Shown here piece by piece: positions 39,739 to 41,930 of a stretch of DNA of 64,000 nucleotides (position 1 is its first letter; each line of letters starts with the position of its first letter). The position numbers and the translations under genes are program-made. The stretch lies in the NCBI RefSeq assembly GCF_054482525.1, contig NZ_CM137006.1; one strand, written 5' to 3'. The notes under the pieces are model-generated. The model ran no database searches and was not told the DNA's origin. It saw only the letters and a list, made by a program, of their open reading frames with translations.

Positions 39739-40890
39739 ATGTCACTTGTCACCGATCTACCCGCCATTTTTGATCAGTTCTCTGAAGCTCGCCAGAAAGG
39801 CTTTCTCACCGTCATGGATCTCAAGGAGCGCGGCATTCCGCTGGTTGGCACCTACTGCACCTTTATGCCGCAAGAGATCCCGATGGCAGCCGGTGCAGTT
39901 GTGGTTTCGCTCTGTTCCACCTCTGATGAAACCATTGAAGAAGCCGAGAAAGATCTGCCGCGCAACCTCTGCCCGCTGATTAAAAGCAGCTACGGCTTCG
40001 GCAAAACCGATAAATGCCCCTACTTCTACTTTTCTGATCTGGTGGTCGGTGAAACCACCTGCGACGGCAAAAAGAAAATGTATGAATACATGGCGGAGTT
40101 TAAGCCCGTTCATGTGATGCAGTTGCCAAACAGCGTTGAGGACGATGCCTCACGCGCGTTATGGAAAGCCGAGATGCTGCGCTTGCAAAAAACGGTAGAA
40201 GAACGTTTTGGGCACGAGATTAGCGAAGATGCTCTGCGCGATGCCATTGCGCTGAAAAACCGCGAACGTCGCGCACTGGCTAATTTTTATCATCTTGGGC
40301 AGTTAAATCCTCCGGCGCTTAGCGGCAGCGACATTCTGAAAGTGGTTTACGGCGCAACCTTCCGGTTCGATAAAGAGGCGTTGATCAATGAACTGGATGC
40401 AATGACCGCCCGCGTTCGTCAGCAGTGGGAAGAAGGCCAGCGACTGGACCCGCGTCCACGCATTTTAATCACCGGCTGCCCAATTGGCGGCGCAGCAGAG
40501 AAAGTAGTGCGCGCGATTGAAGAGAATGGCGGCTGGGTTGTCGGTTATGAAAACTGCACCGGGGCGAAAGCGACCGAGCAATGCGTGGCAGAAACGGGCG
40601 ATGTCTACGACGCGCTGGCGGATAAATATCTGGCGATTGGCTGCTCCTGTGTTTCGCCGAACGATCAGCGCCTGAAAATGCTCAGCCAGATGGTGGAAGA
40701 ATATCAGGTCGATGGCGTAGTTGATGTGATTTTGCAGGCGTGCCATACCTACGCGGTGGAATCGCTGGCGATTAAACGTCATGTGCGCCAGCAGCACAAC
40801 ATTCCTTATATCGCTATTGAAACAGACTACTCCACCTCGGATGTCGGGCAGCTCAGTACCCGTGTCGCGGCCTTTATTGAGATGCTGTAA
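39739..40890 (+). CDS. yjiM: 2-hydroxyacyl-CoA dehydratase-like protein (HgdB/HgdD-type component D family)
   Basis: 383 aa from MSLVTDLP; cysteine-rich. Confidence 0.8.
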   Translation: MSLVTDLPAIFDQFSEARQKGFLTVMDLKERGIPLVGTYCTFMPQEIPMAAGAVVVSLCSTSDETIEEAEKDLPRNLCPLIKSSYGFGKTDKCPYFYFSDLVVGETTCDGKKKMYEYMAEFKPVHVMQLPNSVEDDASRALWKAEMLRLQKTVEERFGHEISEDALRDAIALKNRERRALANFYHLGQLNPPALSGSDILKVVYGATFRFDKEALINELDAMTARVRQQWEEGQRLDPRPRILITGCPIGGAAEKVVRAIEENGGWVVGYENCTGAKATEQCVAETGDVYDALADKYLAIGCSCVSPNDQRLKMLSQMVEEYQVDGVVDVILQACHTYAVESLAIKRHVRQQHNIPYIAIETDYSTSDVGQLSTRVAAFIEML

Positions 40891-40899
40891 GGAGTGGCA

Positions 40900-41667
40900 G
40901 TGACATATTCGATTGGCATTGATTCTGGTTCTACAGCCACCAAAGGGATCTTACTGGCAGACGGCGTGATTACGCGCCGTTTCCTCGTTCCAACACCCTT
41001 TCGCCCGGCTACAGCAATTACTGAAGCCTGGGAAACTCTGCGCGAAGGGTTAGAGACAACGCCGTTTCTGACGCTCACCGGCTACGGACGGCAACTGGTG
41101 GATTTTGCCGATAAACAGGTGACGGAAATCTCCTGTCACGGGCTGGGCGCACGGTTTCTTGCGCCAGCAACGCGCGCAGTAATCGACATCGGTGGTCAGG
41201 ACAGCAAAGTGATTCAGCTTGATGATGACGGTAACCTGTGCGATTTCCTGATGAATGACAAATGCGCGGCGGGCACCGGGCGTTTCCTGGAGGTGATCTC
41301 GCGCACGCTTGGCACCAGCGTCGAGCAACTCGACAGCATTACCGAAAATGTCACGCCGCACGCGATCACGAGTATGTGTACGGTGTTTGCCGAATCAGAA
41401 GTGATCAGCCTGCGCTCAGCGGGCGTCGCGCCAGAAGAGATTCTCGCTGGAGTGATTAACGCGATGGCGCGGCGGAGTGCCAATTTCATTGCTCGTCTCT
41501 CCTGTGAAGCGCCGATTCTGTTTACTGGTGGCGTTAGTCATTGCCAGACGTTTGCCCTGATGCTGGAATCTCATCTGGGAATGCCGGTAAATACCCATCC
41601 TGATGCGCAATTTGCTGGCGCAATTGGCGCAGCGGTAATTGGTCAACGAGTGAGAAAACGCCGATGA
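40900..41667 (+). CDS. yjiL: BadF/BadG/BcrA/BcrD-type ATPase (activase of 2-hydroxyacyl-CoA dehydratase family)
   Basis: 255 aa from GTG start; ASKHA-fold N-terminus GIDSGSTATKG; cluster-type cysteines CAAGTGRF. Confidence 0.82.
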   Translation: MTYSIGIDSGSTATKGILLADGVITRRFLVPTPFRPATAITEAWETLREGLETTPFLTLTGYGRQLVDFADKQVTEISCHGLGARFLAPATRAVIDIGGQDSKVIQLDDDGNLCDFLMNDKCAAGTGRFLEVISRTLGTSVEQLDSITENVTPHAITSMCTVFAESEVISLRSAGVAPEEILAGVINAMARRSANFIARLSCEAPILFTGGVSHCQTFALMLESHLGMPVNTHPDAQFAGAIGAAVIGQRVRKRR

Positions 41668-41930
41668 AAGAGTTTTTATTTTTATTTCACTCCACGGTCG
41701 GCGTCATACAAACCCGCAAGGCGTTGCAGGCAGCGGGCATGACTTTTCGCGTCAGCGATATTCCCCGTGATTTACGCGGCGGCTGCGGGTTATGCATTTG
41801 GCTGACCTGTCTGCCCGGCGAGGAAATACAATGGGTGATCCCTGGGCAGACCGAAGCGATATATTGCCAGCAGGGCAGCGACTGGCAGTGCGTGGTGCAT
41901 TACGATTCAGAAGCGTCAACCAGGCAATAA
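41664..41930 (+). CDS. DUF3343-like small protein (88 aa), translationally coupled to yjiL
   Basis: ATGA overlap with yjiL stop; motif IPRDLRGGCGLCIWL resembles DUF3343 signature. Confidence 0.65.
   Translation: MKEFLFLFHSTVGVIQTRKALQAAGMTFRVSDIPRDLRGGCGLCIWLTCLPGEEIQWVIPGQTEAIYCQQGSDWQCVVHYDSEASTRQ

Follow-up and report, generated by a model that had tools for sequence, protein, structure and literature searches.

The yjiM-yjiL-ytiA operon of Escherichia coli: a probable double-cubane-cluster-type reductase coupled to a putative selenium/sulfur carrier

The genes yjiM, yjiL, and ytiA lie together on the plus strand at positions 39739-41930 of the DNA studied here, a stretch of 64,000 nucleotides from E. 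coli contig NZ_CM137006.1 (RefSeq assembly GCF_054482525.1) that we refer to as the window. Judged from sequence comparisons, YjiM and YjiL very probably form an ATP-dependent reductase of the double-cubane-cluster protein (DCCP) type and not a 2-hydroxyacyl-coenzyme A (CoA) dehydratase with its activase. We somewhat favor a reading in which this reductase acts with YtiA, a putative selenium/sulfur (Se/S) carrier, in a reductive step of Se/S mobilization. All three genes had already been named and annotated, and YjiM had already been described as a DCCP in the literature; what is new here is the quantified adjacency of DUF3343 and DCCP genes and the cassette behavior of the trio in Enterobacterales.

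As the definition of a DCCP we used an [8Fe-9S] cluster together with ATP-dependent reduction (of acetylene, hydrazine, or azide). The candidate catalytic subunit of this family is YjiM (39739-40890, plus strand, 383 aa), whose gene is preceded by an AAGGA Shine-Dalgarno sequence at 39729-39733. YjiM matched the Pfam hidden Markov model (HMM) PF06050 over its full length (7.9e-122) and the equivalog model NF040772, "double-cubane-cluster-containing anaerobic reductase," at 532.1 bits (cutoff 350), covering profile positions 1-372 of 372. In contrast, the dehydratase models HadC and HadB gave 92.9 and 21.2 bits against cutoffs of 700 and 750, and both YjiM and YjiL scored far under cutoff with models of benzoyl-CoA reductase subunits. 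The best PDB matches of YjiM were the Carboxydothermus hydrogenoformans DCCP structures 6ENO and 7YYL (E 9e-75), with YjiM residues 26-383 aligned to DCCP residues 62-421. Because the alignment begins at DCCP residue 62, the shorter N-terminus of YjiM was confirmed: unlike the C. hydrogenoformans protein, YjiM lacks approximately 36 N-terminal residues (the "channel-closing helices"). Jeoung, Martins and Dobbek 2020 (PMC7317905) had assigned YjiM, together with YjiL, putatively to the "class II" DCCPs and suggested that its substrate may be larger, and the paper by Haft on NF040772 lists it as an uncharacterized member.

The seven family cysteines of YjiM (C40, C59, C78, C108, C273, C302, and C335) all aligned to cysteines of 6ENO. 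An exhaustive representative search for homologs returned 3320 matches at E<=1e-3, 379 of them at E<=1e-30, and 40 diverse homologs (30-49% identity) were aligned; C78, C108, C302, and C335 were invariant, and C40, C59, and C273 were at least 90% conserved. By its aligned columns, YjiM carries the 7-Cys motif of six ligands and one cysteine near the cluster. The literal published spacing, used as a regular expression, found no match in YjiM, and column conservation in the 40-sequence alignment was used instead. The cysteines of YjiM are spaced X18, X18, X29, X164, X28, and X32, and the published pattern, CX19CX18-19CX29CX166-170CX32-34CX32C, misfits both YjiM and the residue count of the 6ENO chain itself. 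Since the published spacing does not fit YjiM, motif expressions taken from the paper would miss true members. Among homologs with further domains, one protein of 722 aa (P0122) combined a full-length YjiM homolog (51% identity) with a C-terminal PucR-type helix-turn-helix, which may be a fusion produced by gene calling or one that joins a regulator to an enzyme.

The first-pass annotation had described the locus as an orphan radical-type dehydratase module. On such a reading, YjiM would be a 2-hydroxyacyl-CoA dehydratase that, primed once with ATP by its one-electron activator YjiL, turns over a 2-hydroxyacyl-CoA many times, and YtiA would be an accessory. The full-length PF06050 match of YjiM agrees with this, as does the fact that the best PDB matches of YjiL are dehydratase activators, and a CoA ester is conceivable as substrate because the channel-closing helices are missing from YjiM (Jeoung et al.). 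The dehydratases HgdAB/HgdC of Acidaminococcus and HadBC/HadI of Clostridioides difficile (PDB 1HUX, 3O3M, 4EHT) indeed share the superfamily (PF06050, PF01869); however, they are alpha/beta heterodimers with 3-Cys [4Fe-4S] clusters in CoA-transferase pathways, whereas YjiM is a single 7-Cys protein without such recurrent neighbors. Between yjiN and the espX6 segment that follows ytiA, one PF06050 open reading frame (ORF) was found, where a dehydratase needs an alpha and a beta subunit. To describe the gene context, an alignment scan of one genome per GTDB species was used to collect the closest relatives of YjiM, 80 in number (49-97% identity), together with flanks of up to 10 kb, and six-frame ORFs of these 80 loci were searched with iterated HMMs. 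No CoA-transferase, CoA-ligase, 2-hydroxyacid dehydrogenase, or acyl-CoA dehydrogenase gene was recognized among the 40 most recurrent neighbor clusters, ten of which were annotated by HMM and the others judged from printed sequences. Because subunit composition, equivalog score, and pathway context all disagree with it, the dehydratase reading fails, and we regard it as very improbable. Since YjiM is very probably of the DCCP type, the screens on 2-hydroxy acids proposed earlier, like "putative dehydratase" labels, are probably aimed at the wrong chemistry.

YjiL (40900-41667, plus strand, 255 aa from the GTG at 40900) is the ATP-dependent reductase ("archerase" or activase) candidate of the pair. 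It matched PF01869 (3.9e-76) and TIGR00241 (362 bits, cutoff 125). Its closest solved relative is HgdC (1HUX, 4e-53), and the DCCP reductase DCCP-R was matched at 4.5e-47 (7YYL_E). The [4Fe-4S]-bridging cysteine motifs MNDKCAAGTG and TSMCTVFAESE of YjiL align with those of HgdC, and both cluster cysteines are shared; in DCCP-R the bridging cysteines are C115 and C152. We infer that YjiL serves YjiM as its ATP-dependent [4Fe-4S] electron injector. A lack of conserved cluster-binding cysteines, which had been named as grounds for abandoning the first assignment, was not encountered, as these residues are conserved on alignment in both proteins.

The architecture thus described, a PF06050 protein with an adjoining ASKHA [4Fe-4S] ATPase, is the same as that of DCCP/DCCP-R from C. 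hydrogenoformans (CHY_0487/CHY_0488; 6ENO, 7YYL/7YZM/7YZQ). YjiM aligned with that DCCP over 358 residues with all seven cysteines kept, and the two have the NF040772 equivalog in common; in contrast, the E. coli operon has an extra coupled DUF3343 gene, and the E. coli proteins are known from sequence. The class I benzoyl-CoA reductases (BzdNOPQ, MbdNOPQ; 8S02, 9G87/9GAI) are distant homologs, with BzdN at 2.7e-19 and MbdQ at 1.2e-50 for YjiL. They are likewise ATP-driven low-potential reductases, but they have four subunits and aryl-CoA ester substrates. The title of a 2025 paper (PMC11971306) reports an [8Fe-9S] cluster in class I benzoyl-CoA reductases.

The genes yjiM, yjiL, and ytiA form one compact, translationally coupled operon. 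The yjiM stop codon is the TAA at 40888-40890, next to which stand an AAGGAG at 40889-40894 and the GTG at 40900. This GTG was favored as the yjiL start over the GTG at 40894, where the ORF begins mechanically, because of the AAGGAG and the RefSeq annotation of K-12. The resulting gap between yjiM and yjiL is 9 nt, so that a single PF06050 gene adjoins an ASKHA ATPase gene, as in the pairing of DCCP with its reductase. The third gene, ytiA (41664-41930, plus strand, 88 aa), overlaps yjiL by an ATGA at 41664-41667, read from the sequence, in which the yjiL TGA occupies 41665-41667 and the ytiA ATG 41664-41666. The three plus-strand ORFs, the 88-aa length, and this overlap were all as the first-pass annotation had given them. 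The small ORF is annotated in RefSeq as ytiA, in K-12 and across E. coli, under the names "DUF3343 domain-containing" or "putative Se/S carrier protein." The end of yjiL together with ytiA was matched in 5385 of 5426 complete genomes, and window positions 41500-42200 were 100% identical to E. coli strain PCN033. Sigma-70 and terminator scans yielded as many hits as expected from shuffled sequence, or fewer, and gave no informative site within the operon.

YtiA scored 48.4 bits (6.4e-13) with the model PF11823 (DUF3343, now "Se_S_carrier"), for which the cutoff is 25, and its 88 aa fall within the 70-100 aa range applied to the family. With this match, all three HMM searches suggested beforehand (PF06050, PF01869, and DUF3343) were positive. 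The IPRDLRGGCGLC motif on which the earlier assignment of the 88-aa protein had been based was found in the sequence as described. YtiA residues 1-45, which include DIPRxLRGGCGLCI, were nearly invariant in Escherichia, Citrobacter, Klebsiella, Raoultella, Kosakonia, Phytobacter, and Atlantibacter, and the C-terminal third was poorly conserved between genera. When YtiA was aligned with 16 DUF3343 ORFs from Firmicute loci, F8, C41, and G42 were invariant and P34 was nearly so. PF11823 was matched by 30 of 30 aligned members from Enterobacterales and Firmicutes, all with an invariant C41-G42. The enterobacterial proteins have the motif C41-x2-C44-x4-C49, in which C44 and C49 are enterobacterial additions. 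An AlphaFold2 model of YtiA (predicted local distance difference test score 87.8) showed a ferredoxin-like b-a-b-b-a-b fold. Structure and literature searches for PF11823 returned neither a solved structure nor biochemistry, and the literature on "ytiA" concerned only an unrelated ribosomal-protein gene of the same name in Bacillus subtilis. No selenocysteine (TGA) variant of DUF3343 was found in the 80 loci, and no fusion of DCCP with DUF3343 occurred among 10 multidomain homologs, in which the fusion partners were the ATPase, a second HGD-D domain, or a PucR helix-turn-helix.

Homology of ytiA to K-12 ends at position 41904, approximately at codon 80, and the stretch 41905-41930 was variable in a blastn comparison of the K-12 locus with the window. 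The strain-specific C-termini of YtiA arise because the left junction of the espX6 segment falls within the last ~8 codons of ytiA. That these codons vary by strain (espX6 segment from 41905) and that the C-terminal third is poorly conserved might suggest that the ORF is decaying or arose by chance beside an inserted island, and that it is no functional gene. This is scarcely credible: the Pfam threshold is passed, residues 1-45 are nearly invariant in seven genera, F8, C41, and G42 are invariant across phyla, the coupling to yjiL is conserved, and the AlphaFold2 model is confident. The Pfam score, conservation, coupling, and model effectively refute a chance origin of ytiA.

The first-pass annotation had stated that DUF3343-like proteins commonly accompany this enzyme class, and the survey agreed with this. 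An ATPase homolog was present in 55 of the 80 YjiM-like loci and a DUF3343 ORF in 25 (18 of 44 when loci with full +/-10 kb flanks were counted). Eighteen of 28 DUF3343 ORFs lay within 300 bp of the DCCP or ATPase gene on the same strand (binomial p ~3e-17 against a generous expectation of 5%). The gene order differed between lineages. In Enterobacterales it was DCCP-ATPase-DUF3343; Peptoniphilaceae (L062, L063) had DUF3343-ATPase-DCCP, the DUF3343 and ATPase genes overlapping by 4 nt, and several Clostridia had DCCP(long)-DUF3343-ATPase-DCCP(short). Such diversity of order argues that the linkage is functional and not merely inherited. Two more distant DCCPs (~38% identity), which are anecdotal, were one on a short contig and one in an archaeal DCCP-ATPase pair without DUF3343. 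A separate DUF3343 profile search gave 1587 matches, mainly relatives of the query members, and is therefore a biased sample. Paired DCCP paralogs were observed in Clostridia and Tissierellia, one long (~420-430 aa, with an N-terminal extension) and one short and YjiM-like (~383 aa), sharing one DUF3343 gene and one ATPase gene (L049 3592-7711, L060 10001-13763, L079 7681-11149, and L023/L024).

Within Enterobacterales the conserved three-gene unit, which was recognized as such at first reading and encodes a PF06050 protein, an ATPase of the BcrAD/BadFG type, and a translationally coupled DUF3343 protein, behaved as a cassette. The trio kept its order in six loci (Escherichia albertii, E. coli, Superficieibacter, Citrobacter, Cedecea, and Hafnia) with varying flanks, and the abutting or overlapping yjiL-ytiA arrangement was also found in Citrobacter, Superficieibacter, Cedecea, and Hafnia. 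The adjacency to mdtM and to yjiN (a DUF445 gene) noted earlier holds in this window but is lineage-specific: yjiN was adjacent only in Escherichia, Superficieibacter, and Citrobacter, and mdtM only in Escherichia, while in Hafnia rapA-rluA and djlA-lptD flank the trio. Because its flanks change among genera, mdtM and yjiN are not conserved partners of the trio. This bears on the idea that the trio is an accessory of MdtM in a "YjiL-MdtM" uptake route for proline-rich antimicrobial peptides, an effect of "yjiL-mdtM" on peptide uptake being reported in passages of reviews that cite Krizsan et al. However, YjiL is a soluble ASKHA Fe-S ATPase whose cognate reductase partner adjoins it, and mdtM does not stand beside the trio in Superficieibacter, Cedecea, or Hafnia. 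An accessory role is accordingly highly unlikely, and we treated the peptide effect as indirect because of the nature of YjiL and the poor conservation of the mdtM adjacency.

Selenium genes were enriched near close YjiM homologs, and in Firmicutes the neighbors of the module include an SclA-like cysteine desulfurase, YedF, and SelD. A cysteine-desulfurase family protein of TIGR01977 (497 bits; next best model, the selenocysteine lyase SclA) was present in 20 of the 80 loci, YedF (TIGR03527) in 12, SelD in 5, and a PatB C-S lyase in 10. Nine loci had a LysR protein whose best match was a Se-associated LysR model, under its cutoff; ABC transport genes were also among the recurrent neighbors. 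Taken together, at least one Se/S-trafficking marker occurred in 32 loci. The order CysDes-DUF3343-ATPase-DCCP recurred among the surveyed loci, the DUF3343 gene abutted or overlapped a TIGR01977/SclA-like desulfurase gene in L029, L047, L062-L064, and L074, and in L062 and L063 a SelD-YedF-DUF3343-desulfurase group stood beside desulfurase-DUF3343-ATPase-DCCP. Twelve loci held at least one of an MtaA-like methyltransferase, a corrinoid protein, or an AcsV-like activator, and DCCP genes lay in or beside MtaA-like, corrinoid, AcsV-like, and CobW-like sets in L014, L025, L037, L047, L048, and L060 and in 6 further loci. These sets are the "type I mlp gene clusters" with a DCCP for which a role in methyl-selenide or methyl-sulfur recycling has been proposed.

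Previous comparative work points in the same direction. NF040772 proteins were found in SelD genomes in 955 of 970 cases (Haft), DCCP has been "provisionally linked to selenium metabolism" (PMC10418091), and in comparative genomics the five genes that overlap selD most often include duf3343 and yedF. Lin et al. 2015 described a Se-trafficking set of SelD, YedE, YedF, a Sec-lyase family, and DUF3343, and reported that in Slackia DUF3343 is tied by STRING to both an activase and an HGD subunit; in their work a selenium-specific DUF3343 subfamily was not definable, and the S/Se carrier role was a comparative-genomics hypothesis. YtiA belongs to the same family, PF11823, and close YjiM homologs lie within SelD-YedF-DUF3343-desulfurase clusters; the E. 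coli trio differs in being detached from selD and yedEF.

The neighborhoods also recall a known class of carriers. SufE (with SufS), CsdE (with CsdA), and TusA (with IscS), the persulfide acceptors of cysteine desulfurases, are small proteins with one essential cysteine, encoded beside a pyridoxal phosphate-dependent desulfurase gene, and are regarded as taking up S (or Se) and handing it on. DUF3343 genes resemble them in abutting or overlapping desulfurase genes in the loci named above. Because DUF3343 is tightly paired with desulfurase and Sec-lyase genes elsewhere, YtiA most likely carries an S- or Se-level atom via C41, to or from the reductase.

By analogy with these systems, the following mechanism can be proposed. 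The operon would be switched on when oxygen runs out. YjiL, like HgdC and DCCP-R, would form a homodimer bridged by one [4Fe-4S] cluster and take an electron from ferredoxin or flavodoxin; its binding and hydrolysis of ATP would then drive the energized electron into the YjiM cluster. Such electron injection from DCCP-R into the [8Fe-9S] cluster of DCCP has been demonstrated structurally. In a YjiM homodimer, by homology to the C. hydrogenoformans DCCP, six ligand cysteines would hold an [8Fe-9S] double-cubane cluster with C59 alongside, and the enzyme would reduce a substrate beyond the reach of ordinary cellular reductants. C41 of YtiA would carry S or Se, in persulfide or perselenide form, to or from YjiM/YjiL, in the manner of SufE, CsdE, and TusA. 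The trio would thereby supply the anaerobic reductive step of Se (or S) mobilization that feeds SelD-dependent pathways, rather than take part in hydroxy-acid fermentation. This role in Se/S mobilization is put forward tentatively, and the connection with selenium in particular is suggested by gene context.

The main alternative is that YjiML is a DCCP-type reductase of an unrelated small or organic substrate, for example a CoA ester or else an unsaturated, N-N, or organometallic compound, and that YtiA, standing outside this chemistry, is an S/Se maturation factor that builds or repairs the double-cubane cluster, perhaps by giving its ninth, bridging mu2-sulfide. Under this explanation, however, it is awkward that most YjiM-like loci have no DUF3343 gene nearby and that the C. 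hydrogenoformans DCCP assembled its cluster when made in E. coli, though E. coli has ytiA; moreover, a purely sulfur-based role leaves the SelD and YedF neighbors unexplained. We consider the maturation role rather doubtful.

A more specific form of the mobilization reading is that the module of DCCP, DCCP-R, and DUF3343, here the trio, is the ATP-driven step so far missing from specific selenium assimilation. Se(0) would be loaded as a perselenide on Cys41 of YtiA by a desulfurase or by a selenocysteine lyase, and the double-cubane reductase, boosted by YjiL, would reduce the perselenide to selenide for SelD. A very negative Se(0)/HSe- couple would rationalize the need for ATP-energized electrons. 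In a variant of this scheme, YtiA could provide the double-cubane cluster itself with its bridging chalcogen (S or Se). We think the assimilation scheme unlikely as it stands.

Several observations weigh against the mechanism proposed above and its role in Se/S mobilization. In the E. coli locus itself there is no SelD, YedF, or desulfurase neighbor, and the classical sel genes of E. coli, selA-selD, are not known to include yjiM. In the survey, 55 of the 80 loci had no DUF3343 inside 10 kb and 48 had no Se/S marker at all; moreover, the survey was composed of the 80 closest YjiM relatives, with true dehydratases and benzoyl-CoA reductases left out as negative controls. The cleavage of S-Se or S-S bonds does not obviously need ATP-boosted electrons, and the open channel of YjiM may suit a CoA ester or another large substrate (Jeoung et al., PMC7317905). 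DCCPs were discovered in 2018, and a 2022 DCCP paper still called their physiological function unknown; no experiment on E. coli YjiM, YjiL, or YtiA was found in the literature searched. Finally, the FNR consensus TTGAT-N4-ATCAA, allowing <=2 mismatches, was not found in the 115-bp gap between yjiN and yjiM.

Across the window, matches to the FNR consensus were not above chance in number. In published expression data, yjiM was among the genes that rose under oxygen limitation in O157 Sakai (PMC2241611) and among Fnr-activated genes (bioRxiv 2025.08.18.670860). These listings are consistent with an oxygen-labile Fe-S enzyme. As to the substrate, which the first-pass annotation could not name, none has been published for YjiM, YjiL, or YtiA in the literature searched.

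The cellular role of double-cubane-cluster reductases is most easily studied in E. coli. In the survey, the E. coli genes proved to be a self-contained cassette with DUF3343 as a recurrent and often coupled partner, and the nearest homologs were found among selenium-trafficking genes. An "orphan dehydratase" can therefore be recast as the testable hypothesis of an ATP-driven reductive step in Se/S mobilization, which bears on how selenide reaches SelD specifically.

The surroundings of the operon showed further differences from K-12. Downstream, a segment of low G+C content (30-40%) at 41905-44852 replaces 105 bp of K-12 between ytiA and yjiK and was present in 635 of 5426 complete E. coli genomes (>=80% query coverage). 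Its plus-strand ORF (42192-44591) encodes a pentapeptide-repeat protein of 799 aa, which bears the annotation of type III secretion system effector EspX6 in related genomes and has two internal repeat tracts, of (ATS)n at ~43650-43830 and of SIEKQA(N/S)D-type units at ~44200-44500. Beyond this segment, positions 44853-46913 (yjiK and yjiJ) were ~81% identical to K-12, compared with 96.7% for 36512-41904, and this drop in identity suggests a divergent allele or a recombination boundary. Upstream, on the minus strand at 35647-36603, an intact 318-aa ORF occupies the position of yjiP/rpnD (Rpn family recombination-promoting nuclease), whose K-12 counterpart is marked in its record as a pseudogene containing an internal stop.

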